From IMG/VR virus record IMGVR_UViG_3300022927_000007: 64,000 bases of DNA. One strand, 5' to 3'. Source of the stretch: an uncultured virus (IMG/VR IMGVR_UViG_3300022927_000007) (taxonomy: Duplodnaviria > Heunggongvirae > Uroviricota > Caudoviricetes). Below the pieces are notes generated by a model, which saw only the letters and a program-made list of their open reading frames with translations, had not been told where the DNA came from and did no database searches. Positions 2,614-54,872 of this stretch are shown piece after piece (the first letter of the stretch is position 1; each line of letters starts with the position of its first letter). The translations under genes were made by a program, and so were the position numbers.

Positions 2614-5600
2614 ATGGCACAAGTCGCTCGCATAGGCGGTCAATTACTACAAGATAACTTATTACGAGAACTTTCGGATCTTAAGTTTGACAATGACCTT
2701 TTAGTTGTAAAAAGAGATAATACTCTTGGTATTAATACAACTACAACTCCTAGAAACTTAACTATTAACGGTACATTACGTACATCATCAGGTACTAGTG
2801 AGCCTGATATTATTTTTGATAATAGTTTAAAAATTGGCGACCTTACTCTTGCTACTACCGGTATTAGTACATCAAGCGGAAACATTAATATTAAATCAAC
2901 ACATCCCGAAGGTTATATTGTTACTAACGGTATTGGTAGTTATAATTTTGCTGTTAAGGGCGACGGTCTTATAGCATTAGGAACTAATGATAGTGTTGGT
3001 TTAAGATCAGAAGTCTATGATGGCCAAACAGTTGCCTGGAATTATAACGGTAATTATGGTAATTATTGGTACCCTGGACCAAAGATTAGTGCAGATTCTC
3101 CTCCTAACGATGGCGATAGACTTTATGACGACGCAATAGCAAGAGCACAGGCAGGTACCTGGACTGCTGAAGAATTAGTTGCATTTGACTTTGATGGTGA
3201 TGGAGATATTCAAGTAGATGATGCTTTAAAAATTCTTACAATGAATACACAGTTCATTAACGGAACTGCATTTCCAGCATCAAGAACACTAGCAGATCAC
3301 CCAAATCCTGAAGCATTTAAAGCATATGTAAAAAAATATTATCCGCGAAGTGCTCCAAGAGAATTACAAATCCAATCAGGCGGAACTGTTACAGTAACAG
3401 GTAATTTACACGCTACTGGTGATATTACATACGGTGCAGAACAAATATTCGAAGGATATTCTTTATGGTATACTGTAAATAATCCAAATGCCTACGGAAC
3501 TGATGCTAATGATCATTTTGGTCAAACAGTAGCAGTTGCCGGTAACTTTGGTATTATCGGTGCACCAGATGAAGATTCAGCATCGTTTAGTAGTGAAGGT
3601 AAAGCGTATATCTATAATATCACTACTGGACAATTATTACATACTTTATCAAATCCTGATGCAGGAGCATCAAATACACAATTTGGTGATTCCGTGCATA
3701 TTAGCGGCAACTATGCAATCGTTGGTGCAAGTACATACGGAAATAATGAAGGTAGGGCATACATATTTGATGTAACTACTGGATCGTTATTACATACGTT
3801 ATCAAATCCAAATAACTACGGAACATCGCAAGATGACTATTTTGGACAATCAGTATCTATTAGTGGGACTTTTTGTGCTGTAGGTGCAAGATTTGAAGAT
3901 GAAGCAACAGGTAATAACTCGGGAATAATTTATGTATTTAATAATAGTACTGGTGTATTAGAAGAAACAATTAATAATCCTAACGTATACGGAACAAAAA
4001 CAAATGACTATTTTGGTACTGTTGTATCTATTGATGGAAATAATGTTGCGGCAAGTGCATTAGGAGAAGATACTGCTACTGATACAGAAGTTGGCGTTGT
4101 TTACATTTTTAATGCATCTACAGGAGCACTATCTAGAACTTTACAAAATCCAAATACATTTAGCACAAGTACCGATGATAGATTTGGTGAAGCAATATCT
4201 TTAAGTGGAAATAAAATTATTGTTGGTGCACCTGGTGAAGATGAGCCTAGCAATAGTAATGCAGGTAAGGCATATATTTTTAACGTAACTACGGGAGCAT
4301 TGCTATTAACATTAACAAACCCTAATGATTTTGGAACCAGTCAAGATGATCAGTTTGGATCAAGTGTAGATATTTCAGGAACATGGGCAATTGTTGGAAC
4401 TCCTGGAGAAGATACTGCTAGTTTTAACAGTAGTGGTATTGCATATGTGTTTAATACAAATACCGGACTAATGGTTTCGAAGGTTACTAATCCTAATCCC
4501 GGAACTGATCATAAATTTGCATTTAATGTAGGAATTAATGACGATGCTCATACAATTATTGGAGCACCTCTTGAAACTGTAGACGGATCAACTGAAGCTG
4601 GTCGAGTTTATATACACCAAGCAACAATCAGCGGTAATGAAAGTTCATTAATCATAGGCGACGATAGTACTGATACTGCATCGTTTTTTGCAGATTTTAA
4701 ATCTGATATTATTCCAGATCAAACAGATACGTTTACTATAGGTAATGTAGGTAAGAGATTTAAAATTGCAGTTGAAGAACTAACTGCTGACAGGGTTCAA
4801 GCTAACGGTATTGTTTATCAAGGAATTGAATTAACAAAAAATGTTGGTATTATTTTTGTTTCAACCAACAACGGTAATGATAATAACGAAGGAACAAACC
4901 CGGGCGGTCCGTTTGCAACAATTGCAAAGGCACTTAGTACTGCAACAACAGGCGATTTAATTTATGTTTATCCAGGTCAATACCAAGAAGCATTTCCCTT
5001 AACTGTTCCTAAAGGAGTTACTATCCAAGGAGCATCTTTAAGAAGTGTAGAAATATCACCTACGTCGGCTACACAAAGTAACGATGCATTTTTAGTTAAT
5101 AGTGATACTACGATTGAAAATATTACAATTAAAGATTTTTATTATAACAGTAGTAACGACACTGGATATGCTTTCCGTTTTGCTAATAATTTCTCAACAA
5201 CTATATTTGAACAAACTCCCGGAAGAAGTCCTTATATCAGAAATGTAACAGTTATTACAAAAGGTACAACAACAAGTCCGAGCGATCCAAGAGGATTTGC
5301 AAGCGGCGATGCAGGTAAAGGTGCATTAGTTGACGGAAGTGTTGTCTTACAAAATAGTAGATCTGCTAGTATACTTTTTCATAGTTGTACATTTATTACT
5401 CCAGGTGTTGATGCACTAACAGCAACAAACGGTGTAAGAATAGAATGGCTTAATAGTTTTACATATTTTGCTAATAGAGGACTTTATCTAACACAAGGTA
5501 CCGGAAGATTACTACCGGATAGTACTATTGAATATGGAGCAGAACTTAGAAGTATTTCAAGTGCATCTGTATACGGAAACAAAGGTATCGAAGCCGATGG

Positions 5601-7851
5601 CGAAAATTGTTTAGCATATCTAATTAACTATAATTTTGCATACATTGGCGCAGGTAAAGATGTTACTAACGATAATACATTTACTCTACAAGAAAATGAA
5701 GTTATTGAACTAAACAATGCAAAGGTGTATTATTCAAGCCAAGACCAACGAGGCAATTTTAGAGTTGGTGATAATTTCCTTGTTGATTTAGAAAATGAAA
5801 GAACTAGTTTTGATATTGAAAGCATTTTTGCTACAAATGTAACAGCAATCTTAAGAAACGGTAACGATATAATTACAATTCAACCAAGTCAAATTAATTT
5901 AGATAACATTGTTATTGCAGGAAATACAATTGAAGCTACTAGATCAAATTTAAATATTGACAGCGTTGGAGTAATAAATTTACAAGGTAACGTAACAGCA
6001 CCTTCTATGAATGTTTCAGGAAACTTAACAGTTGACGGTGCAATCAATAATATTGGTGATAGTCCTAATGATACTGTTGACTTTAATATGGCCATTACTC
6101 AAGATTTTCTTCCAGGAGATTCAGACGGATTAACATTAGGAAATGAAACAAAACGTTGGAAAGAATTGTATACTGACTTGTTGGCAACAGACAGTATTAA
6201 CATTACAACATCTGAAATTAGTACTAATGAAACTAATGCTGATTTAAATATTTTAGCAACTGGCACAGGCGCTGTCTTCATTGATAATTTAAAATTTGAA
6301 GATAATAAAATTATAGGTAAATTTGATCCTGAAGGAGAGTTCGTAGTAAATTCATCTACTGATCCAGGATTTCCTAGCATCTTTAATGGATTTGATTCAT
6401 TAAGATCGTTGCTACCAAAATGGACAACTATATTTGGTATACCAGTTCTTGGTACAGCAACAGCATCTTTAGATGCAGTAAAGCATGCCGCTAATATTTT
6501 AGCAAGTTATCTTGATAATAACTTTGACGGAGTTGTAGATAATAATGATCTTTATGCAGAGTTTTCAGATGGATTGTTTGCTATAGTAGTTTATGCAAAT
6601 GCTGCCGAAGAGTCTAGTTTAAGTACACAATTAGGAGCATTTAAAGTTAACAGAACATTTAGTGTTTTTGAAGATGAAATGAATAACTTCTTAGGAGACG
6701 GCGTCGGAAACCAACGAGATATTGCATCTGAAAAAATTCTAAAAGACTTATTAATTCCGAAAATATCTAGTTTACATATTCCGTTAAGTATTACACGACC
6801 GTCTACAGTTACTAACGCAATGGACGCGGCTCGAGGAGGCTTTCAAGCTGGCGGACAAGTTGGATATAATTATCCTCCCTTTGCATGGTACACTGATCCA
6901 ACAGGATTATCATACACAAACTTAGTATATGAATATTTGTATTTGTTAACAGCATCAGTAGCAGGAAGTTTAGAATGGCGTTCTGGAACAATTACTAGTT
7001 TATGGGATCCGTATAATGATGTATTATTGCAATTGCAAGACGTAGCTGGTAGAAATATTATTATTAATAACACTTATGGTTTTCCTATAACAAATAGTCC
7101 GTCAATTGATTACTGGACTGAAGTTACAAATGTATTAGGCGGAACAAAACGAGATGTAGAATTTTCTCCAACAGATTCTTTAAGAATAAATGCTATTAGT
7201 GATTTGTCTTTACCAAAAGGATCACCGGCTGAAAGACCGTCAGTACAAGGCGGAATTAGATATAATACCACTTATAATACATTTGAAGGTACTGAAATTT
7301 TAGGTGCAGTTTCTTTAGACGGTATTTATGATACTGATAGAAACACATATTTAGACCTAAGTAATAACCAATTTAACTTTGTTACTAACGGACAAACAAA
7401 TCACACGTTAAATGGTACACTACTTGAATCATCTGGATTTAGTAGTGATCATAAATTTAGTATAGACGGAAATGTTGTTAGTAATGATGTAGAAGGTGGA
7501 AATAGTATATTAAGATCAAACGGTACTGGTTTCACTAAAATACAAGAAGTTCACTTTAGAGATAGTGAGTTAGTTAATGCTAGTGCTGCCAATTTTATCT
7601 TTAATTTAACAAATACTAATAACAGAGCTTTTCTAAAAATTGATAATGTAAGCGGTATGGTTATCCCGCAAGGTACTACAGCAGAACGTCCTGGAATACC
7701 TGAAGTTGGACATACAAGATACAACTTAGATCTAGAATACGTAGAAACTTGGAACGGTTCTGACTGGATTAATGCGGCAGGTGAAGTTGAAAGTATTGAA
7801 GCATCTGATGTTGAAAATTTAGCTTATATATTCAACCTTATCCTAGACTAA
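2614..7851 (+). CDS. Large multidomain virion/fibre protein (7-bladed FG-GAP propeller, beta-helix-like region, extra inserts)
   Basis: 1745 aa. Seven FG...(I/V)GA(P/R) repeats; FVSTNNGNDNNEG...PFATIAKAL...GDLIYVYPGQY pectin-lyase-like start; two C-terminal PxG(S/T)xAERP...RYN motifs. Late promoter TAAATA at 2581-2586. Paralog of 7989..11705. Confidence 0.8.
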   Translation: MAQVARIGGQLLQDNLLRELSDLKFDNDLLVVKRDNTLGINTTTTPRNLTINGTLRTSSGTSEPDIIFDNSLKIGDLTLATTGISTSSGNINIKSTHPEGYIVTNGIGSYNFAVKGDGLIALGTNDSVGLRSEVYDGQTVAWNYNGNYGNYWYPGPKISADSPPNDGDRLYDDAIARAQAGTWTAEELVAFDFDGDGDIQVDDALKILTMNTQFINGTAFPASRTLADHPNPEAFKAYVKKYYPRSAPRELQIQSGGTVTVTGNLHATGDITYGAEQIFEGYSLWYTVNNPNAYGTDANDHFGQTVAVAGNFGIIGAPDEDSASFSSEGKAYIYNITTGQLLHTLSNPDAGASNTQFGDSVHISGNYAIVGASTYGNNEGRAYIFDVTTGSLLHTLSNPNNYGTSQDDYFGQSVSISGTFCAVGARFEDEATGNNSGIIYVFNNSTGVLEETINNPNVYGTKTNDYFGTVVSIDGNNVAASALGEDTATDTEVGVVYIFNASTGALSRTLQNPNTFSTSTDDRFGEAISLSGNKIIVGAPGEDEPSNSNAGKAYIFNVTTGALLLTLTNPNDFGTSQDDQFGSSVDISGTWAIVGTPGEDTASFNSSGIAYVFNTNTGLMVSKVTNPNPGTDHKFAFNVGINDDAHTIIGAPLETVDGSTEAGRVYIHQATISGNESSLIIGDDSTDTASFFADFKSDIIPDQTDTFTIGNVGKRFKIAVEELTADRVQANGIVYQGIELTKNVGIIFVSTNNGNDNNEGTNPGGPFATIAKALSTATTGDLIYVYPGQYQEAFPLTVPKGVTIQGASLRSVEISPTSATQSNDAFLVNSDTTIENITIKDFYYNSSNDTGYAFRFANNFSTTIFEQTPGRSPYIRNVTVITKGTTTSPSDPRGFASGDAGKGALVDGSVVLQNSRSASILFHSCTFITPGVDALTATNGVRIEWLNSFTYFANRGLYLTQGTGRLLPDSTIEYGAELRSISSASVYGNKGIEADGENCLAYLINYNFAYIGAGKDVTNDNTFTLQENEVIELNNAKVYYSSQDQRGNFRVGDNFLVDLENERTSFDIESIFATNVTAILRNGNDIITIQPSQINLDNIVIAGNTIEATRSNLNIDSVGVINLQGNVTAPSMNVSGNLTVDGAINNIGDSPNDTVDFNMAITQDFLPGDSDGLTLGNETKRWKELYTDLLATDSINITTSEISTNETNADLNILATGTGAVFIDNLKFEDNKIIGKFDPEGEFVVNSSTDPGFPSIFNGFDSLRSLLPKWTTIFGIPVLGTATASLDAVKHAANILASYLDNNFDGVVDNNDLYAEFSDGLFAIVVYANAAEESSLSTQLGAFKVNRTFSVFEDEMNNFLGDGVGNQRDIASEKILKDLLIPKISSLHIPLSITRPSTVTNAMDAARGGFQAGGQVGYNYPPFAWYTDPTGLSYTNLVYEYLYLLTASVAGSLEWRSGTITSLWDPYNDVLLQLQDVAGRNIIINNTYGFPITNSPSIDYWTEVTNVLGGTKRDVEFSPTDSLRINAISDLSLPKGSPAERPSVQGGIRYNTTYNTFEGTEILGAVSLDGIYDTDRNTYLDLSNNQFNFVTNGQTNHTLNGTLLESSGFSSDHKFSIDGNVVSNDVEGGNSILRSNGTGFTKIQEVHFRDSELVNASAANFIFNLTNTNNRAFLKIDNVSGMVIPQGTTAERPGIPEVGHTRYNLDLEYVETWNGSDWINAAGEVESIEASDVENLAYIFNLILD

Positions 7852-7865
7852 TTTCCCAAATCAGA

Positions 7866-8022
7866 TAAATAATATTAATGCAACGAAGGGCAGACCAGGC
7901 CGTTGCTGACAAACTGTGGTTAGCCGGCAAAGAGCGAAAGCTGAAAATTTAGGCTAGAGGGACAGGATCCCCGTATTAAGGAGAGAAGATGGCAATTGGT
8001 CGCATATCGGGTCCTCTCTTAA
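7866..8022 (+). ncRNA. Late promoter plus putative structured cis-regulatory RNA leader
   Basis: TAAATA at 7866-7871, then a GC-rich ~110 nt leader with stems GCAACG/CGTTGC, TTAGCC/GGCTAG enclosing AGC-GAAA-GCT, and GGGA/TCCC. The SD region TTAAGGAGAG can pair with CTCTCTTAA (8014-8022) inside the CDS. Confidence 0.5.
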
Positions 8023-11000
8023 AGGATAACTTACTCCGCAATGGAGCGAATTTAGCCTTCGAGACAGACCTTTTATACTTAGATGTAACAAACCGTCGGA
8101 TCGGTGTAAAAACTACAAATCCTCAATACGCATTAGACGTTGCAGGCATTGCCCGTGTAACAGATCTAGAAATTACAAATAACGTTTTTAATATTGGTAA
8201 TGTTACAATTAATGGTGACACTGCTACTATTTCAACTTCTGCACAAGAATTTGCAATCGCAACAGCTGATAATACTATTGTAGGCAATAGAGTAGTAGTC
8301 GGCGACTTAGAAATTAATAATAACTTTTTAGAAAACACAAATACTAACAGTGATTTGTTTATTCGTGCAAACGGTACCGGAACCGTAAACATTGTAGGTA
8401 ATACTGTAATTACTGGTAATTTACATGCTACAGGCAATATTAGTGCCGACGGCAACATTGTTATCGGCGACGACGACACTGATAACATTTATATTAACGC
8501 AGACATTGCAAGTAACATTTTACCTGATATTGACGATACTTATAATATTGGATCAGCGAGTAAGCGTTGGGCAACTGGATTTTTTGGTAACGTTACAACA
8601 AATACATTAACAACAAATGATTTGGATTTTGGTAACATTGACCTAATTAGTATTCCAGGAAATATCATTTATGTTGCTACTAACGGCGGTGATAATCAAA
8701 CAGGCACACACCCACAAGATCCTGTACTAACTATTACAAAGGCATTAGAACTTGCTAGTTTAGGTGATACTGTTTACATTTATCCAGGACAATATCAAGA
8801 AGCATTTCCATTAACAGTACCGTTAGGAGTTACAGTAAAAGGACATAGTATACGTTCAGTAGAAATTACTCCAACAAGTGGAACACAAAGTAATGATGCT
8901 TTTTTATTAAACGGTGACACAACAGTTGAAGACATAACTGTTAAAGATTTTTATTACAATAGTGGTGCAAATACAGGATACGCTTTCCGTTTTGCAAATA
9001 ATTTTAGAACATATGAAAGATCACCATACGTAAAAAACGTTAGTGTAATCACAAAAGGAACTACAACATCTAATGATGATCCAAGAGGATTTGCAAGTGG
9101 TGATGCAGGCCGAGGCGCATTAGTCGACGGCAGTATTGCTAATGCAGATTCTAAAGAAGCGTCGATATTATTCCATAGTGTAACATTTATTACACCCGGT
9201 GTTGGTGGTTTAAAAATTACTAACGGCGGTAGAGTCGAATGGTTAAGTTCATTCACATACTTTGCAGATAAAGGAATTGAAATTGTTGACGGCGTAGCAG
9301 GTCTAAAAGGCGACGGCAAAACAAAAATTAAATATTCCGGATTTAGCGGATCAGCAGTAGCACCTGGTCAAACTATTACACTTAAAGATGCAAACGGTAC
9401 AACACTTGCATCATCAACAATTGAAAGTGTAGACACTGATACTGTAATAATTGATGGTAAGCCAAGCGGCTATATTCTACCATTAAGTAGAGCTAAGAAA
9501 ACAGTTACAGCAGTTGGAAACGCACAAGCAGTAACATCTGCTCCTGTAAAATACGGAACAGGCATTGGTTTATTTGATGGTACAGATGATAGATTTACAA
9601 TTACTACACAGTCTGACTTTGGTTTTGGCACTGGAGATTTTAGTGTAGAAGGATGGATTTATATTAGCGACGATCTTGGTACTGAATCAATTTTTGATTT
9701 TAGAGCAGGATCAGCAACTGATGATGCATTACACTTTTATACAGTTGACAGAGCACCTAAAGTTGACATTGGCAACACTACTTTAATTGCACCGGCTATT
9801 ACATTAATCAACACTACGTTTTATCATATTATGGTAACACGAGTTGGTACAACTTTAAGATTATTTGTTGACGGACTATTACAAGGTTCTGCAACTGTTA
9901 GTACAAATTTAGGAACAACAAAACCATTAATAATTGGTAACGCATATGATGGATTAACTGGACATGCTGGACGTATAGACGACTTCCGTATAAGAAAAGG
10001 CATAGGAGAAAATGCAAACTTTCCAGCGCCAACGGCGGCAACTGTAGTTGATCAATATACAGTATTAAAGTTAAACTTTGATAGTAATAACGGATCACAA
10101 ATTATTACAGACGACGACACTTTCATTCAAACTATTGAATTTAGTGGCGGTGGCACAGCAACAGCATTAACATTAATTGATCAAAGCGATTTTGGTGGCG
10201 AACTAAGATCTATTTCTAGTGCATGTATTTACGGCAACTATGGAATATATGGTGATGGTCCAGGTAGTATAGTATATGCCATTGGTCAAAATTTAGCATA
10301 TATAGGATCAGGTAAAGAAGTTACTAATGATCCAACAGAAGTTATACAGGATAACGAAGTAGTTGCACTTAATGATGCAAAAATTTACTTTAGTACAGTT
10401 GATCACAAAGGTGATTTTAGAGTTGGTGACTTATTTAGAATTAATCAACAAACTGGCGAAGTATCATTTACTAATGCAGAATTCTTATTTAACAACAACC
10501 AAGGTATTACTTTCACTGACGGCGTTAACACAACTATTATTGATGGTACAAAAATTGAAACTGGTAATATAAGAATTACAGGAAACACTATTTACAGTAC
10601 TAGTGGTGATGTTAATATTAATACTACAACTGGTGAAATTAATTTAATTGATAATGTTAATATTACTGGTAACTTAGATGTTGCAGGAAATATTACTATT
10701 GGTGGAAATATTACACTTGGCGACGAAAATACTGATGTAATTAATATTAATGCACAAATTGACAGTGATATTATTCCGGCAGCCGATGTTACTTATAAAT
10801 TAGGTAATAACGGTCTTGCATGGTCAGAAGCACACGTTGGAAAAGCAATTATTGACGATATTACAATTGACAACGATACAATTAGTTCTACTGGTAGTAA
10901 TGGTAATATTAATATTATTCCTAATGGAGCGGGTAGTGTTATAATTGACCAACTTCAATTAAACGGTAATGCTATATCAAATTTAAGTGGTGATATTATT

Positions 11001-11705
11001 TTAGATCCAAGTAGTGAATCAGTAAAAATTACTAGCACTGGAGCACTGGTACTACCAAAAGGTACTACAGCAGAACGTCCATTATCTCCTGTAACAGGTA
11101 TGATTCGTTATAATACTGACGCAAATGTATTTGAAGCATACGACGGAGGCTGGATTAACTTAGGCGGCGTTTACTCAGATGATAGACAGACATATATTAC
11201 TGCTGAATTAACACCGGGCGCAAACGACGATACTATACGTTTTTATGCTAACGGAAGTATAGTAGCAGATGTAACTACTGAACGCTTTGATGTACAACGA
11301 TTAGAAGTAGATGATATTGCAATTTCTGGAAATATTTTAGAAACAATTACTACAAATGCTGATCTAAATTTAAGAGCAAACGGAACTGGATTAGTAACCA
11401 TAGAGAACTTTAGTTTCAACGGAAATCAGATAACTAATACTATAGATGGTGCTGTTACTACACTTAAACAAAACGGTTCGGGATATTTTAAAGTTGAAGG
11501 CACAGGCGGATTTGTTATTCCAGTTGGTAATAACGCTAATAGACACCCAACACCAGAAACAGGTATGATGAGGTACAACAGTGTTGAAGACAGAGTTGAA
11601 ATTTATGATATTTCGAATAACTGGGTGTCAGTAGCAGGTGCAACAGGTGCTGTTACATTTAATGATGCAGAGGAGATTGCAATTAAACTTGCATTGACAA
11701 TATAG
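7989..11705 (+). CDS. Large virion/fibre protein with beta-helix-like region and LamG/ConA-like lectin domain
   Basis: 1238 aa. FGFGTGDFSVEGWIY...HIMVTRVGTTLRLFVDG...IDDFRI is LamG-like. Paralog of 2614..7851; ends IAIKLALTI. Confidence 0.8.
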   Translation: MAIGRISGPLLKDNLLRNGANLAFETDLLYLDVTNRRIGVKTTNPQYALDVAGIARVTDLEITNNVFNIGNVTINGDTATISTSAQEFAIATADNTIVGNRVVVGDLEINNNFLENTNTNSDLFIRANGTGTVNIVGNTVITGNLHATGNISADGNIVIGDDDTDNIYINADIASNILPDIDDTYNIGSASKRWATGFFGNVTTNTLTTNDLDFGNIDLISIPGNIIYVATNGGDNQTGTHPQDPVLTITKALELASLGDTVYIYPGQYQEAFPLTVPLGVTVKGHSIRSVEITPTSGTQSNDAFLLNGDTTVEDITVKDFYYNSGANTGYAFRFANNFRTYERSPYVKNVSVITKGTTTSNDDPRGFASGDAGRGALVDGSIANADSKEASILFHSVTFITPGVGGLKITNGGRVEWLSSFTYFADKGIEIVDGVAGLKGDGKTKIKYSGFSGSAVAPGQTITLKDANGTTLASSTIESVDTDTVIIDGKPSGYILPLSRAKKTVTAVGNAQAVTSAPVKYGTGIGLFDGTDDRFTITTQSDFGFGTGDFSVEGWIYISDDLGTESIFDFRAGSATDDALHFYTVDRAPKVDIGNTTLIAPAITLINTTFYHIMVTRVGTTLRLFVDGLLQGSATVSTNLGTTKPLIIGNAYDGLTGHAGRIDDFRIRKGIGENANFPAPTAATVVDQYTVLKLNFDSNNGSQIITDDDTFIQTIEFSGGGTATALTLIDQSDFGGELRSISSACIYGNYGIYGDGPGSIVYAIGQNLAYIGSGKEVTNDPTEVIQDNEVVALNDAKIYFSTVDHKGDFRVGDLFRINQQTGEVSFTNAEFLFNNNQGITFTDGVNTTIIDGTKIETGNIRITGNTIYSTSGDVNINTTTGEINLIDNVNITGNLDVAGNITIGGNITLGDENTDVININAQIDSDIIPAADVTYKLGNNGLAWSEAHVGKAIIDDITIDNDTISSTGSNGNINIIPNGAGSVIIDQLQLNGNAISNLSGDIILDPSSESVKITSTGALVLPKGTTAERPLSPVTGMIRYNTDANVFEAYDGGWINLGGVYSDDRQTYITAELTPGANDDTIRFYANGSIVADVTTERFDVQRLEVDDIAISGNILETITTNADLNLRANGTGLVTIENFSFNGNQITNTIDGAVTTLKQNGSGYFKVEGTGGFVIPVGNNANRHPTPETGMMRYNSVEDRVEIYDISNNWVSVAGATGAVTFNDAEEIAIKLALTI

Positions 11706-28820: not shown

Positions 28821-29554
28821 TGCATACAGTATATTGGTCACCAGTTATAAATGTACCAGATAACCAAGAATTTGTATCTGAATTAAAGTACTACGAACCT
28901 AATACAGTATATAAAGACTTAAATGCTAGAGAATTTTTTGGTTTAGGCGCAAGTTTATGTCCTGCAATTGTTGACGAAACTAAAAATACTTTTACTGCAA
29001 AAAGTCCTATTGATTTTCATATTAAATTAGATTATGAAAGACAAGAGTTAGTTTCTAAGTATGATGTTGAACCTAACTTTTTAATGAATTATATTGGACA
29101 GCCAAATCCTGAAGGTGTTTATCAATTAGATCATCCTTGTTTTCTATTTTTTAGTGAAAAACCGTTAACAATGACACAGCTTCCTCCATATTATAGCGAA
29201 AGTCAGTTTTCAAGAGACACAATGGGTATAGCAGGTACATATAATATAGCAAGTTGGATTAGACCAGTACGTCCTGCATTTAAATTTAAAAAAAATGTTA
29301 GAGAACTTGACATAAAACAAGGAGATACGTTGTGTTACTTTAAATTTAACACAACAGAGAAAGTTAGATTAGTTAGATTTGATAGTGCTAAATTATTTGA
29401 ATCTAAAACCGGGCCTGTAATGCAGTGTTTAGGATTTAAAAATCTTAAAGCAAAGAGATTTTTGCCAACACCGTTAGCAGAATGTTATGAAGCATTTGAA
29501 AATGCAAGATATAGAAGTAAAGTTTTAAAACTTATAAAGGAAAATAAAGTATGA
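28820..29554 (+). CDS. Hypothetical protein
   Basis: 244 aa ORF, translationally coupled on both sides; no confident motif. Confidence 0.7.
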   Translation: MHTVYWSPVINVPDNQEFVSELKYYEPNTVYKDLNAREFFGLGASLCPAIVDETKNTFTAKSPIDFHIKLDYERQELVSKYDVEPNFLMNYIGQPNPEGVYQLDHPCFLFFSEKPLTMTQLPPYYSESQFSRDTMGIAGTYNIASWIRPVRPAFKFKKNVRELDIKQGDTLCYFKFNTTEKVRLVRFDSAKLFESKTGPVMQCLGFKNLKAKRFLPTPLAECYEAFENARYRSKVLKLIKENKV

Positions 29555-31380
29555 CACAGTGGATTGGAGCAATTACAAGAGGTCACAACGGTGGCGCAGT
29601 TTTATTAAAAGACGGTGAAATTGTTTTTGCTATCGAAGAAGAAAGATTAACACGTAAAAAATACGATGGCGGCCCACTAGCCGCAATGACTAAGTTTTTA
29701 GATTACACTGATAAATTAGATTATCTAGTCGTTGCTCATACACAACCGTTAGAAGAATCAAGTAGAATTGACTTTAGCGGTGGAGACATGTATACTGGTC
29801 TTGCAAGAAAGTTAGGACTTATTGATAGATCAGATAATGCATATACTCCTGACGGACATCATAATCATAGACAAGTAATTGATATGAGTTATGTACATCA
29901 TAAACTACATGCGGCATGTGCATTTTATAGAAGTGGGTTTGAATCAGCAGTTGCAGTAGTAGTTGACGGTGCCGGCACCTTTATTCCTATGAATATTTCT
30001 ACGGGAACATTTAATGATGAGTTTATGACTTGGGAATGTGAAAGTATTTTTAATTGTTCTTATCCTGATGCTATTAAAACATTATATAAACATCAGGGCG
30101 GAAACGGTCCTTATCCTGGAACTAGGGTTCAATATATTCCTTCAGAAAGAGAAGGGGAAGAAGGATTCCATGAACTTGTGCTAGATGATAGTGCAGGTAT
30201 TACAAAGGCCTACGAAGCAGTAACACAGTATTGTGGATTTCAGCCAATTGAAGCTGGCAAAACAATGGGTCTTGCTCCTTATGGCAAACCTAATGATAAG
30301 ATTCCTCCAATTTATACAGATGGAAATGGCGGCAAATGGCGTACTAGTGATAGAAGTGTAATTATTCCTACATATCCTAATGCGGCTGTAGTAAATGAAG
30401 GAAAATATGAATATCTTGAAACTTCTCAAGACGTAGTTAACAGTAGAGTTGATCTTACAACATTAGAAAACCGTAGAGATATGGCATATGCTGTACAAGA
30501 AGGTTCACAGCAAGAAGTTTTAAATCTTATTTTTAAGGCAGTTGAAATGAGCGGTAACAAAAATGTTGTACTAAGTGGTGGCTATGCACTTAATTGTGTT
30601 GCTAATTATTGGTATCTTGACAAATTAAATAAAGAAGGTATTAATTTATATGTAGAGCCTGTTAGTAGTGATGCTGGAACAGCAATTGGTGCCGCATTAT
30701 TAGTTTATCATCAAACTACTAAAGATAAAAAAGTACGTCCGTATACAGAAACAATTTATGAAGGATTTCCTTATTGTCATTCAGATAAAGAAATTGAAGA
30801 AGTTGCAAACAAATACGGTGCTGTAGTTGTTGACGCTGACAATAAAAAAGTAGTTGAGTTAATTAGAGACAGAAAAATTGTTACAATGTTCCAAGGACGA
30901 TCAGAAAATGGTCCAAGAGCACTCGGTAACAGAAGTATTCTATATGATCCAACAGACCTAAATGGAAAAGATCATGTAAATCGCATTAAGCGTCGCGAAT
31001 ATTTCCGCCCATTTGCAGGAACTATTCTTGCTGAACATGCACATGAATGGTTTGATATGCGCGGTTTGGAACAGTCGCCTCATATGATGTATGCAATGAA
31101 TTGCCAACCCGGTGTTGCTGAAAAAATTCCAAGTATTATTCACGTTGACGGAACTTGTCGTATTCAAACAGTGACTCAAGAACAAAATAAACATTATTAT
31201 GAAATAATTAAAGAATTTTACGAACAAACAGGTGTGCCAATTATCTTTAATACTAGCTTTAACTTAGGAGGCGAGCCTTTAGTTGAAACATTAGACGATG
31301 CAGTACGCACACTTTATAGTAGCGAAATGGAATATTGTTATTTGCCTGAATATGGTAAATTAATTGAAATGAAAAACTGA
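29551..31380 (+). CDS. Carbamoyltransferase (NodU/CmcH/TobZ family)
   Basis: 609 aa: EEERLTRKK, HHKLHAA.AFY, VVDGAG, GKTMGLAPYG, SGGYALNC, DAGTAIGAA, GPRALGNRSIL, KRREYFRPFA, HVDGTCRIQTV, NTSFN. Confidence 0.93.
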   Translation: MTQWIGAITRGHNGGAVLLKDGEIVFAIEEERLTRKKYDGGPLAAMTKFLDYTDKLDYLVVAHTQPLEESSRIDFSGGDMYTGLARKLGLIDRSDNAYTPDGHHNHRQVIDMSYVHHKLHAACAFYRSGFESAVAVVVDGAGTFIPMNISTGTFNDEFMTWECESIFNCSYPDAIKTLYKHQGGNGPYPGTRVQYIPSEREGEEGFHELVLDDSAGITKAYEAVTQYCGFQPIEAGKTMGLAPYGKPNDKIPPIYTDGNGGKWRTSDRSVIIPTYPNAAVVNEGKYEYLETSQDVVNSRVDLTTLENRRDMAYAVQEGSQQEVLNLIFKAVEMSGNKNVVLSGGYALNCVANYWYLDKLNKEGINLYVEPVSSDAGTAIGAALLVYHQTTKDKKVRPYTETIYEGFPYCHSDKEIEEVANKYGAVVVDADNKKVVELIRDRKIVTMFQGRSENGPRALGNRSILYDPTDLNGKDHVNRIKRREYFRPFAGTILAEHAHEWFDMRGLEQSPHMMYAMNCQPGVAEKIPSIIHVDGTCRIQTVTQEQNKHYYEIIKEFYEQTGVPIIFNTSFNLGGEPLVETLDDAVRTLYSSEMEYCYLPEYGKLIEMKN

Positions 31381-33276: not shown

Positions 33277-34755
33277 ATGAAAATAGCAGTAGTAGGTGGC
33301 GGCACAGCAGGATTTGTAGCTGCCTTAACATTAAAAACTAGTTTTCCTTCTTACGTTGTTGATGTAATACGTTCAACAAAGATAGGAACAATCGGTGTTG
33401 GCGAAGGTTCTACCGAACACTGGACTGCATTTATGGAACATGTTGGCATATCAGCAGGAGAAATGCTTAAAGAAGTTGACGGAACATTTAAAACAGGTAT
33501 CATGTTTGAAGATTGGGGAGAAAAACCTTACCTTCAAAATGTACACGAACCTTTTGTACCTAAACATTTAGGAATGCCAATGGCATATGCTAAACTTATT
33601 GGTGAAAATGTTGATCCTCGCGACTTAACAGGTGATTACCTTTGGCGTAATCATACTCCATTCAGTAAATTTATTGAAGAACGTCCTAACGATACCGGAG
33701 TTAGTCAATACCATTTTAATACTAGTAAACTTAATAACTATCTCACTAATTTTGCATTAAACAAAGGATGCCAAATCATTGATGATGAAATTATAAAAGT
33801 AAATGTTATCGAAAACAATCAGATTGACACAATTGAAGGCGAAAAACAGACATACGACTATGACTTTTACATTGATTGTACAGGATTTAGAAGATTGCTT
33901 ATAGAGCCTGTGGGCGGTAAGTGGCAAAGTTACAGCAAATATCTAAAAATGAAAGAAGCAATAGTTTTTCCAACAGAATATACTAATGCTATTGATCCGC
34001 GCGGCGACGAAATACCTATTTGGACTTTGGCAAAAGCAATGAATGCAGGCTGGATGTTTCGCATACCGGTTTGGGACCGTAAAGGCAACGGTTATATTTT
34101 TGATAGTGATTTTATTACAGCCGAAGAAGCACAAGAAGAAGTTGAAAAATATTTAGGACATGGTATCGATGTAGCAAAACATATTAAGTTTGAAGCAGGA
34201 GCAATTGATAAACCTTGGATTGGCAATGTATGTGCAATAGGCCTTAGTGCAAACTTTGTAGAACCTTTAGAAGCCAGTAGTATTGGAACTAGTATTAATC
34301 AAAGTATGTTATTAGCACAGCGTATCGTCAATTACAATAATCAAACAATTAATAGATATAATGTAGAAGTAAACGCAATAATGGAAAATATTAGAGACTT
34401 TATTGCACTACATTATATTACACCAAGACGTGATACTCCTTTTTGGAGAGCTGTTGCAGAAACTCCTTTACCTTCTACCCTTGAAGAAAATTTAAAAATG
34501 TGGAAATACAGAATGCCCATTGAAGATGATTTAACTTCTCATACAAAAAAAATTCTGTTTAATGAATATAATTTTGCAATTGTAATGCATGGATTAGGGT
34601 TATTTGATACTAATAGTATTTTAAAACAATACAATACATTACCACCTGACGCACAAGAATTTGTTAATCGTCAATGCCAGCAAAAAATTCAATTTGATCA
34701 AATTAAATCTATTCCGCATAAGATAATGTTAGACTTATTGCGGAGATTAGTATGA
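33277..34755 (+). CDS. Flavin-dependent (tryptophan-type) halogenase-like protein
   Basis: VVGGGTAG, IGVGEGS, catalytic-Lys context GTFKTGIMF, IDCTGF, GWMFRIP (WxWxIP variant), FVEPLEASS. Confidence 0.88.
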   Translation: MKIAVVGGGTAGFVAALTLKTSFPSYVVDVIRSTKIGTIGVGEGSTEHWTAFMEHVGISAGEMLKEVDGTFKTGIMFEDWGEKPYLQNVHEPFVPKHLGMPMAYAKLIGENVDPRDLTGDYLWRNHTPFSKFIEERPNDTGVSQYHFNTSKLNNYLTNFALNKGCQIIDDEIIKVNVIENNQIDTIEGEKQTYDYDFYIDCTGFRRLLIEPVGGKWQSYSKYLKMKEAIVFPTEYTNAIDPRGDEIPIWTLAKAMNAGWMFRIPVWDRKGNGYIFDSDFITAEEAQEEVEKYLGHGIDVAKHIKFEAGAIDKPWIGNVCAIGLSANFVEPLEASSIGTSINQSMLLAQRIVNYNNQTINRYNVEVNAIMENIRDFIALHYITPRRDTPFWRAVAETPLPSTLEENLKMWKYRMPIEDDLTSHTKKILFNEYNFAIVMHGLGLFDTNSILKQYNTLPPDAQEFVNRQCQQKIQFDQIKSIPHKIMLDLLRRLV

Positions 34756-45172: not shown

Positions 45173-45995
45173 TTAAATATTCCTCCACAGTAATCCAATG
45201 TCTAATTGGAATTGTATTATGTAATCTTGCATTATCTGCACATGTATATTCTTGATATTGTCCTTTAAGTTTATCAGGCATATCAATATATTCAATAGTT
45301 GCATTATGTTTTTCAGCAACTAATTGAGCAACTTTTTCTACACTAATTGCGTTACCAGTTCCAACATTATAGATACCGCTAACATCTTGTTCCATCATTT
45401 GTTCGTGTATACGCACTATATCATATACACAGACACAATCACGTTTATACTGATCACTGTTTTTAAAAAGTTTAATAACACCGTCTTGTTCTGCTTGACG
45501 CTGAAACTTGCTTACAAGACTCATTTGATCACCTTTATGACCTTCTCCAGGACCGTATACGTTAAAATAACGGAAGCTCTGTACATTCATTTGAAATGAG
45601 TCTGGTTGATAAATTCCATGATCAACTAGAAATTTATCAACTAAGTATTTGCTCCAAGCATAAGGTGTTTGCGGATATTTTGGCGCATCTTCATTAAAAT
45701 CGGTATATGGACCATACACACTTGCACTACTTGCTAGTTGAATATTTGTGCCGTAATTATCACAAACTTGCAATAGCCTTAGCGTAAACTCGTAATTATG
45801 AGCCCAAACTTTTTCAATATCTCTTTCTGTCGTATCTGAAATTGCACCAGTATGAATTACCCAATCATATTGATCTACTGCCGGAACAACGTTTTCAACA
45901 TATTCAAAACCTTCAACCTCGTGCCCTTTATGCAACATATAATTTGCAATGTGACTTCCAATAAAGCCTTTATGTCCTGTTACTAAAATTTTCAT
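45159..45995 (-). CDS. hldD: ADP-L-glycero-D-manno-heptose 6-epimerase
   Basis: VTGHKGFIG, HTGAISDTTE, ASSASVYG, YAWSK, RYFNVYGPGEGHKG, KGQYQEYTCAD. Confidence 0.88.
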   Translation of the reverse strand: MKILVTGHKGFIGSHIANYMLHKGHEVEGFEYVENVVPAVDQYDWVIHTGAISDTTERDIEKVWAHNYEFTLRLLQVCDNYGTNIQLASSASVYGPYTDFNEDAPKYPQTPYAWSKYLVDKFLVDHGIYQPDSFQMNVQSFRYFNVYGPGEGHKGDQMSLVSKFQRQAEQDGVIKLFKNSDQYKRDCVCVYDIVRIHEQMMEQDVSGIYNVGTGNAISVEKVAQLVAEKHNATIEYIDMPDKLKGQYQEYTCADNARLHNTIPIRHWITVEEYLNGAN

Positions 45996-47241
45996 GTATT
46001 CTCTCTACTATATTTGTGGTTGACTTTCCTTTAACTGTAGGAAAAATTTCTACATTATAATCTTGATGACCAACTACAGTCTCTATTATATAGTCTCCGC
46101 CCTTAATAATCAAGTCTGGATTGACTATTTTGAGCAAATTTTCTGGGGTATCTTCTGTAAATACCTTTACTTCATCTACCCAAGGAAGCACTTCAAGTTG
46201 TTCAATACGTGTAGCAATATCGTTAATTGGTCTATTAGAACCTTTTAATCTTTGAACACTAGCATCACTATTAACACCAACTACTAATTTATCACCTCTA
46301 CTTTTTGCATATTTTAACAATTCTAAGTGTCCGGCGTGTAGTACATCAAACACTCCATTTGTAAATATTACTTTTCTTTTAATATCACGCATTGTTACAA
46401 CATGCACTCCACGATGTTCAACAGATCTTGCACTTGCATAGCATGCAAGTTCGCATGCTTTAAAAATATCCATACCTTCGTTAATTCCATATGCAATTAC
46501 TGCCAATGCAGTATCACCAGCACCAGTAACATCAGCAACTTCTTTAACAGGTTCTTTAAAATGCCTGTAGGTTAAATCGTTACATAGTACATGCATTCCG
46601 TTTGCACCGTCTGTGACTACGAGATATTTCCAGTTATGATTTTTAAGATGTACAATAGCTAATTCTTTTTTAAATTCACCAAACCATTCAGTATATTCTT
46701 TCATATTAGGTTTTACTAAAAATGCACCATCATAAAAATCAGGTGATTGTTTAGGATCAACAATTACTTTACATCCTTTAGATACTAAGGTTTGTACAGT
46801 ATTTTTTCTAATTACACCTTTATCATAATCGCTTATTACAACAACATCGTCTTTATTAATTTCTTTTAATAATTTTTCAAATGCAGTATTATTAGAATAT
46901 TTTTCTTCTCTGTCCCATCGTACTATCTGTTGTCCATTTTGTCCTACTACTCTATTTTTACTAGTGGTTACATTTGCATCCATTACTACATTAAAATCAA
47001 TATTTGTATTTTTATCAAAACATTCGACGAGCTGATATCCTTCTTTATCTGTAGATATGGCACCGTATAAACTAATTTCACCAACTAAACTAGAAATATT
47101 TAATGCAACATTGCCAGCGCCTCCTGGTTTTAATTCTTGATGTGTTTCGAGCAATACTGGTACAGGTGCTTCCGGACTAATCCTAGATGCTTCTCCGATA
47201 ATCCATCGATCTAACATTACATCGCCATAAACTTTGATCAT
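45970..47241 (-). CDS. hldE: Bifunctional heptose-7-phosphate kinase / heptose-1-phosphate adenylyltransferase
   Basis: GDVMLD, RISPEAPVPV, GGAGNVA, SDYDKG, DVTGAGDT (PfkB) fused to FTNGVFDVLHAGH, NSDASVQRLKG, KGGDY, STT. Confidence 0.93.
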   Translation of the reverse strand: MIKVYGDVMLDRWIIGEASRISPEAPVPVLLETHQELKPGGAGNVALNISSLVGEISLYGAISTDKEGYQLVECFDKNTNIDFNVVMDANVTTSKNRVVGQNGQQIVRWDREEKYSNNTAFEKLLKEINKDDVVVISDYDKGVIRKNTVQTLVSKGCKVIVDPKQSPDFYDGAFLVKPNMKEYTEWFGEFKKELAIVHLKNHNWKYLVVTDGANGMHVLCNDLTYRHFKEPVKEVADVTGAGDTALAVIAYGINEGMDIFKACELACYASARSVEHRGVHVVTMRDIKRKVIFTNGVFDVLHAGHLELLKYAKSRGDKLVVGVNSDASVQRLKGSNRPINDIATRIEQLEVLPWVDEVKVFTEDTPENLLKIVNPDLIIKGGDYIIETVVGHQDYNVEIFPTVKGKSTTNIVERIHENFSNRT

Positions 47242-48716
47242 TACATTCCTCTTATATATTTTGTGTTATCGGGTAAATTTTCTGACTTCATATGATGTTG
47301 TTGAACATGGTATAGATATGCACTATCACTTAACACTACATCATTATTATAGTTCAATTCTTTACGTGCAACTATATCTGTTAATGCGCCAGTACCAGTT
47401 AAAACAAAACTCCATAGTGGCCATCCGGCACTTCCTTCTTGTCTTGGAAATAGTGTAGCATTAGGAACTCTGTGTTTGCATATTTCGTGAATGGAGTTTA
47501 CAAAATCAGTTTTTGTTGCACCGCTATCAATATGTTTCCAAAATTCTGTATCATTTCTGCCGCAGGTATAATGTGCTACAAGAAAATCTTTCATTGTATC
47601 GTACAAGTGTCCATTAACTTTATTGTAGTTTTCTACTTGTGCATCATTACATGTTTCTTGGACATGTGATCCTAAACAACCAAATATAAAATGTTTTAAT
47701 TGGAAAATAGTTGTATGAATACTAGTTGCTTCTAACGGTTCAGCAAACGCCGCACACAAGCCAATTGACAATACGTTTTTAATCCACAACTTTTCTTGAC
47801 GGCCACTATCAAACTTTAATAATCTAATTGGATCAACTTTGCGTCCAATTGTTTGCTCTAGTTCAGCATGTGCTTGATCAGGGGTAACAAAGTCATCACA
47901 AAATACATATCCGCATCCTCTCCGATTCTTTGTCGGAATCTGCCAACACCATCCATTGTTCTGCGCCCATGCATTAGTAACAGGTTCAATAATTTCATCA
48001 TCTTCATACGGTAATAAAAATGGTAAGGCACTATTTACAGGCAAGTTTTCTTTATAACTTTTCCATTTTCCACCTACTGCTTTCATTAGCACTTGATTAA
48101 ATCCACTAGCATCAATAAACATATCTCCAATTACAGATTGACCATTAGATAAATTTAGTTTTTCAATGTATCCTGACTCACTGTTAAGTATAACATCATT
48201 TACTTCACTGTCAATATGTTCAGCATTACTAATCTTTTTAAAGTATTGTCCTACTTTGTGAGCATCAAAATGATAAGCGTGATTTCCTGCTGGCTCTACA
48301 AAACTGTTTTTATTATGATGTATTTTATAACCTAATTCTGTTGAAATATGTAATAAGTTATTATCTCGGTAACCTAGTGCATGCTGAAAAATAAGATCAG
48401 ACCGATCATTTGATGTTGGGCTACCGTCAATTGGACCTATGTAAAACTTACTAGGATCTTTGTTCCACCCAATATGTTTAATACCTAGTTTAATAGTAGC
48501 ATCACATTCTTTAATAAAATCTTGTTCATTACATCCAAGATCCCACATCTCATTTTGTACAATGTTAGTTAGTGATCCAGTTGATCCTTCACCAGCACCG
48601 ATAATACCTATCTTAGAGCTTTCAATTACAGTAACTTTATGTTCAGAACGTATTTTTGAAATCATTAGCGCGGCTAGCCAGCCGGCAGTGCCTCCACCGA
48701 CAATAACTATTTTCAT
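47241..48716 (-). CDS. Flavin-dependent halogenase-like protein
   Basis: IVGGGTAG, IGAGEGS, DATIKLGI, GWCWQIP, FAEPLEATS. Confidence 0.88.
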   Translation of the reverse strand: MKIVIVGGGTAGWLAALMISKIRSEHKVTVIESSKIGIIGAGEGSTGSLTNIVQNEMWDLGCNEQDFIKECDATIKLGIKHIGWNKDPSKFYIGPIDGSPTSNDRSDLIFQHALGYRDNNLLHISTELGYKIHHNKNSFVEPAGNHAYHFDAHKVGQYFKKISNAEHIDSEVNDVILNSESGYIEKLNLSNGQSVIGDMFIDASGFNQVLMKAVGGKWKSYKENLPVNSALPFLLPYEDDEIIEPVTNAWAQNNGWCWQIPTKNRRGCGYVFCDDFVTPDQAHAELEQTIGRKVDPIRLLKFDSGRQEKLWIKNVLSIGLCAAFAEPLEATSIHTTIFQLKHFIFGCLGSHVQETCNDAQVENYNKVNGHLYDTMKDFLVAHYTCGRNDTEFWKHIDSGATKTDFVNSIHEICKHRVPNATLFPRQEGSAGWPLWSFVLTGTGALTDIVARKELNYNNDVVLSDSAYLYHVQQHHMKSENLPDNTKYIRGM

Positions 48717-54245: not shown

Positions 54246-54872
54246 ATGATTATAGGTATTTGTGGATTAATTGGTAGTGGTAAAGGTACCGTTGCTGATA
54301 TTCTTGTAGAAGAACACAATTTCCAAAAGATTAGTTTCGCAGATAAACTTAAAGATGCTGTATCACTTTTGTTTGATTGGGATAGAGACATGCTTGAAGG
54401 CGACACTGCTGAAAGCAGATATTGGCGAGAACAACCGGATAATTTCTGGTCAAAAGAAACTGGCCGCACAATTACACCTAGATTAGTACTACAAGAATTT
54501 GGCACAGATTGTATGAGAAATGGATTCTATGACGGAGTTTGGGTTAGTTTTTTTAAAAAAACAGTATTAGATAATCCTAAAACTAATTTTGTAGTACCAG
54601 ACTGTCGTTTTGAAAACGAAGCAAGTATGATCAAAGAGCTTGGCGGAAATGTTTGGTGTGTAAAACGTGGACCTGATCCTTTATGGTTTAGACAATACAT
54701 TGATTTAGATATACAACCAACAGACGTACATATGTCAGAATGGGCTTGGGCCAAAGTTCCATTTGATTTTAATATCTATAACGAAGGTACTCTTGACGAT
54801 CTTAAAAGTCAGGTACAAGGTCGCCTTGCTTCCACCTTACGCCTTGCTTCTGTAGTACCCTCTGACAGTTAG
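54246..54872 (+). CDS. Deoxynucleoside monophosphate kinase (T4 gp1-like)
   Basis: IIGICGLIGSGKGT, SFADKLK, TPRLVLQEFGTD, DCRFENE, HMSE. Confidence 0.9.
   Translation: MIIGICGLIGSGKGTVADILVEEHNFQKISFADKLKDAVSLLFDWDRDMLEGDTAESRYWREQPDNFWSKETGRTITPRLVLQEFGTDCMRNGFYDGVWVSFFKKTVLDNPKTNFVVPDCRFENEASMIKELGGNVWCVKRGPDPLWFRQYIDLDIQPTDVHMSEWAWAKVPFDFNIYNEGTLDDLKSQVQGRLASTLRLASVVPSDS

Follow-up and report, generated by a model that had tools for sequence, protein, structure and literature searches.

A conserved leader RNA predicted to pair with the first codons of a giant baseplate gene in aquatic T4-like phages

The gene for a 1238-aa gp7-like baseplate wedge/fibre protein of an uncultured T4-like phage is preceded by a folded leader of about 110 nt that carries a late promoter, and comparison with homologous leaders confirms it as a conserved RNA with a common predicted structure (Table 1). 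The fold combines the stems P1, P2, P2a and P3 with two pseudoknots, PK-A and PK-B, the second of which would join the loop of the first hairpin to codons 3-5 of the gene itself. The leader most probably acts as a translation-limiting operator that encloses the ribosome-binding site (RBS) and pairs with the first codons, a reading with an estimated probability of about 0.6.

Table 1. Positions of the leader, its predicted helices and the neighbouring genes in the window
Feature	Position	Strand	Basis or remark
Gap between the 1745-aa and 1238-aa genes	7852-7988		137 nt, GC 0.45
Leader with late promoter and constrained codons	7864-8021	+	conserved, predicted structured RNA
T4-type late-promoter core GATAAATA	7864-7871	+	start of gap
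Predicted transcript start	~7877	+	assumed T4 late-promoter spacing
P1 hairpin	7880-7885/7901-7906	+	5' end of leader
P1 outer stem	7880-7884(5)/7901(2)-7906		
P1 inner stem, 3 bp (possible)	7889-7891/7899-7901		
P1 loop L1	7892-7898		
PK-B 5' strand, L1 loop GACCAG	7893-7898	+	complementary to codons 3-5
PK-A 5' strand UGU	7915-7917	+	within J1/2
P2	7920-7925/7952-7957	+	encloses P2a
PK-A 3' strand GCA	7927-7929	+	in P2 internal loop
P2a hairpin AGC-GAAA-GCU	7933-7942	+	within P2
P3 hairpin GGGA-CAGGA-UCCC	7959-7962/7968-7971 (7959-7971)	+	right before SD
SD (AAGGAGAG), spacer, AUG (7989-7991)	7978-7991	+	direct reading
PK-B 3' strand, codons 3-5 UUGGUC	7996-8001	+	pairs with L1 (predicted)
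Codons 8-11 GGU CCU CUC UUA	8010-8021	+	leader-linked synonymous constraint
1745-aa gp7-like wedge/fibre gene	2614-7851		upstream neighbour
Regulated gene, 1238-aa gp7-like baseplate wedge/fibre protein	7989-11705	+	PHROG, domain and cyanophage matches
Carbamoyltransferase, tryptophan-halogenase-like (three) and heptose kinase/adenylyltransferase-like genes, jointly	29551-31380, 33277-34755, 47241-48716 (-), 48713-50224 (-), 45970-47241 (-)		
Tail sheath gene	55256-58537		1093 aa

The locus and its transcript

The window, that is, the whole 64,000-nt stretch of DNA analysed, is part of a 167.5-kb virus record (IMG/VR IMGVR_UViG_3300022927_000007). The phage is a T4-like myovirus, with genes for baseplate wedge, tail fibre, sheath and tube present. 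The 1238-aa protein matches the baseplate wedge subunit phrog_13163 (E 6e-183) as well as cyanophage gp7, and it contains a Laminin_G_3 domain. The first-pass annotation, made from the letters of the window, had drawn attention to the GC-rich 137-nt gap in front of this gene and to the late promoter with which it opens. Both observations hold, with a GC content of 0.45 in the gap against 0.37 for the whole window, and the other window gaps with a late-promoter core are AT-rich (GC 0.18-0.33).

Transcription presumably starts about 6 nt past GATAAATA, a position that we infer from the spacing of T4 late promoters. In 84 of 84 distinct leaders collected with a DNA pattern, TAAATA is followed by 6 nt and then by P1, and a late promoter fixed at this distance implies that the stems should be part of the transcript. 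Elsewhere in the window TAAATA is found 11-45 nt ahead of start codons, so that the leader represents an exceptional insertion of about 95 nt between late promoter and RBS. Near-identical contigs over the region occur in four salt-marsh metatranscriptome runs. One RNA-library contig breaks at 7888-7908, with depth going from 3.2 to 9.2, a weak hint of a transcript start. RNA-library contigs also cross the gap, and such libraries can contain DNA, so that start, strand and level cannot be read from them. In one of the RNA libraries (run X2) a contig joins the conserved P2-3'/P3 segment (from window position 7952) to a different P2a sequence, which points to a second leader variant, from a related phage, in that sample.

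The tail and baseplate genes of the window are interspersed with genes for a carbamoyltransferase, three tryptophan-halogenase-like proteins and a heptose kinase/adenylyltransferase-like protein, a set that may serve to modify glycans or metabolites as auxiliary genes. At 1093 aa the tail sheath is exceptionally long. Among cultured phages its best matches come from jumbo phages (Pseudomonas PA5oct, 40%; Agrobacterium Atu_ph07, 47.5%; part of length), and since its identity to any cultured phage is at most 40-48%, the phage appears to belong to a lineage without a close cultured member.

Distribution and link to one gene family

A protein scan of viral contigs returned 38 orthologues with upstream DNA, corresponding to 21 distinct leaders (that of the window included) with obvious compensatory changes. 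A core DNA pattern located the leader in at least 119 viral contigs, which yielded 84 distinct leaders, all of them in front of the peptide start M/V-A-x-G-R-I-x-G-x-L-L. The covariance model R1, built from a structure-blind alignment of 33 leaders, recovers all 84 pattern-derived leaders. In the window it identifies one site, at 7876-7991 with 94 bits (E 1e-19), and the whole 167.5-kb record has one copy; a second window match in cmsearch, at 54565-54625 (E 4.5), is noise. An RNA-blind metagenome search with an alignment of the N-terminal 110 residues found at least 601 relatives among 636 candidate stretches, of which the best 80 were kept. R1 matches 78 of these 80 best protein-anchored loci, one of the 78 being cut at its 5' end, and the two loci without a match have only 9 and 5 nt of upstream DNA. 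The metagenome loci and the viral protein-anchored set together form the set of 98 leaders used below.

The leader is linked exclusively to the family of the 1238-aa gene. The motif is found at 0 of 22 loci of the upstream paralogue. The adjacent giant baseplate/fibre genes (2614-7851 and 7989-11705; loci L427-L541) have a conserved N-terminal domain of about 55 residues in common (MAxGRISGPLLK...DLLYLDV). Many related contigs have a leaderless paralogue directly upstream of the leader-bearing gene, and loci L450 and L257 lie 2.1 kb apart on one contig. Codon choice in codons 4-10 differs sharply between the leaderless and the leader-bearing paralogues.

Searches of 50,697 phage records with blastn and tblastn returned no cultured phage with the leader or with a match to the full N-terminal domain. 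A loose DNA pattern produced mostly chance matches. Of 47 pattern matches in the genome_contigs collection 2 are real, both in one 'Candidatus Neomarinimicrobiota' MAG. The contigs concerned (L306, 335 kb; L341, 153 kb) each have a full-scoring copy of the leader (130.9 bits); they are probably phage contigs binned with the bacterium, and as an indication of the host they are at most a hint.

Stems of the leader

Conservation and covariation among homologues show the predicted stems and both pseudoknots. P1, P2, the P2a hairpin and P3 had all been listed in the first-pass annotation; they are found exactly where it had placed them, and each is supported by covariation. The homologous leaders are conserved, and every stem contains compensatory changes. 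Folding of the single sequence is uninformative by comparison: the minimum free energy of the window leader is -39.2 kcal/mol against -40.9 +/- 4.1 kcal/mol for shuffled sequences (z = +0.43), and a fold at least as stable is reached by 134 of 200 shuffles. Energy alone therefore gives no more than chance, whereas the comparative evidence does exceed it. The MAFFT alignment of 33 leaders, made blind to structure, has 92.2% of its cells paired, compared with 85.4% in shuffles, and 9 of 19 pairs are compensatory. For the 84 pattern-derived leaders the values are 95.9% against 82.1%, with 13 of 19 pairs compensatory. In the 98 protein-anchored leaders (83 distinct) 17 of 19 stem pairs change on both sides and 97.2% of cells pair, compared with 75.9% for shuffled and at most 50.2% for slid partners, in an alignment that was fitted to a covariance model and so leans towards structure. 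G.U pairs together with compensatory changes indicate that the element acts as RNA of the + strand.

The P1 hairpin is present in every leader despite its unconserved sequence; in the protein-anchored leaders its outer pairs are compensatory in 5 of 5 cases and 95.6% of cells are paired. P2 is paired in 98.6% of cells, with 4 of 6 pairs compensatory, and is closed by U.G in 67 of 83 leaders. The P2 pair 7923/7954 is non-canonical in 14 of the 84 pattern-anchored leaders (columns 83/135 of alignment A3). By eye these 14 have A opposite C (UAACC with GGCUA) where the other leaders have A-U or G-C, and the mismatch could be either tolerated or a protonated A.C wobble. All 4 pairs of P2a are compensatory. 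Its length varies, its loops, as read by eye from the leader listing, are mostly GNRA, and leaders of the 49-nt core class have a short loop instead.

P3 is paired in 100% of cells, and 4 of its 4 pairs covary. It provides the clearest case of covariation, as a divergent clade has the whole of P3 swapped for CCGUG/CACGG or CGGUG/CACCG. The P3 loop, which does not vary in the marine clade, is also a different one there. Members of the divergent clade (L386, L410, L397, L484 and others) have P3 in the form CCGUG-AAA-CACGG, P2 as UAAACC/GGUUA and the spacer AGAGC; judged only by the series of their record names, they may derive from non-marine waters. Many unpaired bases of the leader are likewise invariant, including positions fixed by no search pattern (A73, C74, A90, G138 and C144 of alignment A3), and more than 20 of the invariant bases lie in junctions.

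The pseudoknot PK-A

PK-A was missed in the first-pass annotation; by comparison of the leaders it is a conserved predicted pairing. In the helix of 3 bp, 249 of 249 cells contain canonical pairs. At 7915-7929, 63 leaders have U-A, 15 have C-G and 5 have A-U, the middle pair is G7916-C7928, and pair 7917-7927 is U.G in 75 leaders and C-G in 8. The helix was found in an all-against-all scan of alignment columns, and multiple testing applies because it was picked from many column pairs; no other non-helix pair in that scan had three Watson-Crick types at 100%. Since PK-A brackets the 5' strand of P2, the two would form an H-type pseudoknot with G7918/G7919 as its first loop. Two targeted scans of viral contigs turned up no variant of either G.

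The pseudoknot PK-B and the first codons

PK-B, the other pairing missed on first inspection, is conserved and covaries, and it would tie the leader to the coding region. In the window the predicted pairing of L1 GACCAG with UUGGUC amounts to -6.4 kcal/mol. Among 153 distinct leaders the L1 tetramer is GACC in 108, GGCC in 21, GUCC in 7, GACU in 5 and GAUC in 2, and in 143 of the 153 it is fully complementary to the codon 4-5 tetramer of the same gene. Four further leaders scored as "none" (L041, L232, L236 and L266) reflect an incomplete extraction of P1, the full P1 containing GACC. The codons on the other side are strictly kept: of 131 leader-bearing genes, 130 have GGT for Gly4 and 130 have CGN for Arg5. 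In the window as a whole, 60% of Arg codons are AGA and 39% of Gly codons are GGT, and Arg17 and Arg37 do use AGR (22 of 131 and 14 of 128 genes).

Coding variants were sought in viral contigs regardless of leader and L1. Most matches are same-peptide paralogues that have a short late leader only and freely use AGA, and 11 distinct variants bear the leader. Seven of them have GGA-CGN (GGAC), and all 7 have GUCC in L1, so that GACC:GGUC becomes GUCC:GGAC. Three AGA-Arg5 variants, together with a leader collected earlier (L388), have no GNCC in L1, both sides of the pairing being lost in these 4. The variant L523 (GGGC) has no clear partner in L1. In MAFFT alignment A9 (51 leaders), for which the references L479 and L491 were extended 4 nt upstream so that MAFFT aligned L1, the second PK-B pair is A-U in 40 leaders, U-A in 7, C-G in 1, G.U in 1 and other in 2, and the PK-B score of this alignment is reached by 0 of 500 shuffles.

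Other partners for L1 fare less well. The UGGU of J1/2 is complementary to L1 in 93.7% of cells; this pairing does not covary and is broken in the GUCC variants as well as in eight GCGGU variants. As J1/2 stays CUGUGGU in the GUCC variants, the partner of L1 is to be sought in the coding region and not in J1/2. One leader (L402) has GUAGU in J1/2 with no compensating change. The second GGUC of the gene, in codons 8-9, is also rejected as the partner, since at that place the GUCC variants carry GGGC or GGUC instead of GGAC.

The Shine-Dalgarno region and codons 8-11

It had further been proposed that the SD region can pair over 9 bp with the codons at 8014-8022 (7976-7985/8014-8022). This pairing is present in the window (-9.6 kcal/mol) but is specific to the clade of this phage and not general. 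The codons CCT-CTC-TTA occur in 11 of 84 leaders only, and in an RNAduplex shuffle test the SD pairing beats shuffles (p <= 0.05) in only 15 of 84, a weak test because shuffled pyrimidine tracts still pair with the purine-rich SD. What is general is complementarity between SD AGGAG and the CUCUU of codons 10-11. It extends to 94.1% of cells, compared with 92.3% for shuffled and at most 63.7% for slid partners, and is carried mostly by invariant bases. Covariation is slight, and the pairing of the SD with codons 10-11 is for this reason graded as probable only. The partner of codons 8-11 is thus probably the SD and spacer, the best common partner being SD AGGAG.

Two other arrangements were rejected. 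The register that pairs spacer AAGAG with CUCUU forms in only 76.7% of cells. The 5' strand of P3, AGAGGGAC, shows by eye a complementarity of 8 bp with a bulge to codons 8-10 in the marine clade; it is impossible in the divergent clade, where the same codons are kept. Folds in which pseudoknots were not modelled give intermediate mean unpaired probabilities of 0.50 for the SD and 0.32 for the AUG.

Codon counts in same-peptide paralogues show a synonymous constraint on codons 4-11, read here as a sign of RNA pairing, only where the leader is present. Gly8 is GGT in 125 of 131 leader-bearing genes and in 2 of 72 leaderless paralogues, and Pro9 is CCG in 103 of 123 against 10 of 72. For Leu10 the codon CTC is found in 112 of 130 leader-bearing genes and in 0 of 17 leaderless paralogues, and TTA encodes Leu11 in 109 of 131 and 17 of 17, respectively. 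The four leaders without PK-B are also without CUCUU, as read by eye from the listings.

Proposed mechanism

Late transcripts would begin just past the promoter core, so that the RNA would open with P1. A compact domain would comprise P1, the H-type pseudoknot of PK-A and P2, the capping hairpin P2a, and P3 placed before the SD. The loop of P1 would reach about 100 nt downstream to pair with codons 3-5, and the purine-rich SD and spacer probably pair with the pyrimidine-rich codons 10-11. Both long-range pairings would enclose SD and AUG in a knotted fold, and their enclosure would limit 30S binding. The outcome would be low or timed translation of one giant baseplate/fibre protein, compared with neighbours that have short unstructured late leaders. 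By analogy with other structured leaders, a fold that encloses the RBS should restrain initiation, and we infer a repressive direction on this basis, although pairing in the coding region could in principle aid rather than hinder translation.

As the leader pairs with the first codons, it most likely sets the amount of baseplate protein that is made. An element confined to a single gene, next to paralogues that share the N-terminal domain and have no leader, suggests dosage control, in which the leader would set the dosage of one among several proteins competing for one docking site.

Alternative explanations

The first-pass annotation had described the element as a riboswitch-like or protein-binding leader that controls translation of a structural protein. 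The part that stands is a conserved + strand 5' leader of the 1238-aa gene with a covarying pairing of L1 and codons 3-5; the riboswitch part loses weight, as the motif is confined to one gene family. Both gp32, which acts on the pseudoknot of its own leader, and ribosomal proteins, which act on theirs, are autogenous operator-binding proteins. By the same principle, the product of the 1238-aa gene or an assembly partner could lock or open the RBS-enclosing fold. The restriction of the motif to one gene family, as in ribosomal-protein leaders and the T4 gene 32 operator described in passages of PMC3014915, agrees with this, and so do the many invariant unpaired bases, including those outside the search-pattern positions. 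Paralogues with the same N-terminal domain lack the leader, however, and the divergent clade has another P3 loop than the invariant one of the marine clade, so a protein-dependent autogenous operator is kept as an unlikely but serious reading. It is rather doubtful that the leader is a new class of switch, in which the knotted core (P1, PK-A/P2, P2a and P3) would sense a phage protein or a host metabolite and toggle L1 on codons 3-5. If it were a true switch, the phage would pick, for each virion, the amount of one of several paralogous fibre/wedge proteins with a common baseplate-docking N-terminus, and the composition of the virion, perhaps also the host range, would be controlled at the RNA level. 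A riboswitch proper, whose core binds a small molecule reporting the state of the host and whose expression platform is the L1:codon pairing, is distinctly improbable. The aptamer-like pseudoknot, the mostly GNRA-capped P2a, the more than 20 invariant junction bases and the position in the 5' UTR would suit it, and L1 can in principle pair with either UGGU in J1/2 or GGUC in the coding region. The motif nevertheless goes with one family of structural genes (84 of 84 and 78 of 80 loci) and with no metabolic or transport genes, no Rfam riboswitch model matches, and of the two alternative pairings of L1 only that with the coding region is supported, the one with J1/2 being without covariation and not following the GUCC variants.

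The location of P1 at the predicted 5' end in all leaders, and the length of the mRNA (3.7 kb), would also fit an element of mRNA stability or processing that blocks 5'-end-dependent decay or guides cleavage by an RNase and does not act on initiation directly. A plain hairpin would suffice for that role, which leaves the covarying pairing of codons 3-5 and the synonymous constraint up to about +33 unexplained, and this explanation is given slightly less credence still. Small pseudoknotted ribozymes are common in phage DNA, yet no ribozyme family matches the leader even at E <= 10. An upstream ORF is suggested by an ATG at 7878 that opens a frame of 24 codons in the window, but this ATG is missing in 52 of 142 leaders, its frame relative to the core varies (50/25/15), and the frames are 1 to 38 codons long, on which grounds the ORF is rejected. 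The G.U pairs and compensatory changes, which point to + strand RNA, speak against an upstream ORF and a DNA-level site alike. A self-cleaving ribozyme, or the absence of any RNA element, is accordingly very remote.

A translation-limiting operator that takes in the RBS and the first codons thus remains the preferred reading. The leader is widespread, its spread being given by at least 119 viral contigs and, in metagenomes, at least 601 relatives of the gene, in aquatic T4-like phages without a cultured close relative. Its loop-to-codon pairing visibly overrides codon usage, and the constraints can be followed at the level of base pairs. It opens to experiment the question of how the dosage of a giant, low-copy structural protein is set in a large phage, and the questions of whether leader pairing shapes synonymous sites at the start of phage genes and whether the fold is responsive to a factor. 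For the annotation of genomes it is a clean case on which to base a new RNA-family model.

Comparison with known systems

The first-pass annotation could assign the leader to no Rfam family, in agreement with a search of Rfam 15 (4227 models, including riboswitches, ribozymes, Alpha_RBS and GP20-a/b) that gave 0 matches over the whole window at gathering thresholds. At E <= 10 the stretch 7700-8200 has one chance match, to NCRUPAR_1 on the minus strand, which scores 20.7 bits where the threshold is 50. Translational operators with a structured, pseudoknotted RNA are textbook knowledge for T4 gene 32 and for ribosomal-protein operons; to our knowledge, few have been characterised for phage virion genes. 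In the leader of the E. coli alpha operon (rpsM), the operator of S4, a nested pseudoknot with the RBS and first codons controls initiation. The predicted fold described here resembles it in taking in the RBS and first codons, and differs in its helices and in the organism, with no match to Alpha_RBS (RF00140) or to any other Rfam family. In phage MS2, long-range pairing in the leader of the maturation protein has been proposed to limit synthesis kinetically.

A literature search found no description of this leader, although it may be included among the 8,495 unnamed IMG/VR candidates of Fremin, Bhatt and Kyrpides 2023 (PMC10690425), in the searched text of which the leader core string does not occur. 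Two marine Caudovirales candidates of that catalogue, DNAVirus_1536 and DNAVirus_4451 (84 and 87 nt, 353 and 174 sequences), are recorded 16 and 9 times, respectively, at no more than 25 bp upstream of Laminin_G_3 genes, and both are flagged as terminator-like (PMC10690425). Neither is described in main-text sections 2.4 and 2.5 or in the searched passages of that paper; by habitat, size and downstream domain only, one or the other could be part of the leader motif. GP20-a and GP20-b (RF02991 and RF03003) are candidate cis-regulatory leaders before a phage virion gene, as given in passages of PMC10690425. The present leader differs from them in gene and hosts, and here Rfam gives no match.

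An architectural analogy is offered by the leader pseudoknot of T4/T2 gene 32, according to passages of PMC3014915 possibly the only viral pseudoknot in autoregulation of translation. Both are mRNA leaders of T4-type phages with an H-type pseudoknot near the 5' end, and the likeness is one of architecture only, there being no sequence similarity between them. In contrast to gene 32, the downstream gene here encodes a baseplate wedge protein and not an ssDNA-binding protein, the transcript comes from a late promoter, and the extra stems P1, P2a and P3 are present. The tract between knot and SD is the GC-rich P3 instead of an A/U-rich sequence, and where gene 32 has an A/U-rich tract coated cooperatively by its own product, the present leader would make direct contact with codons 3-5. 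Hairpins of the T4 genes e, soc, 49 and I-TevI place the SD and/or AUG of these late genes in an RNA helix that lowers 30S binding, as described in passages of PMC3014915. Compared with those hairpins, it is codons 3-5 that are predicted to pair here, with L1, while the complementarity of the SD to CUCUU (94.1%) barely covaries. In these four genes the structure contains the late promoter, and late transcripts therefore escape the helix. In the present family, by contrast, 84 of 84 leaders have the promoter before the entire fold, and late transcripts would therefore carry the fold.
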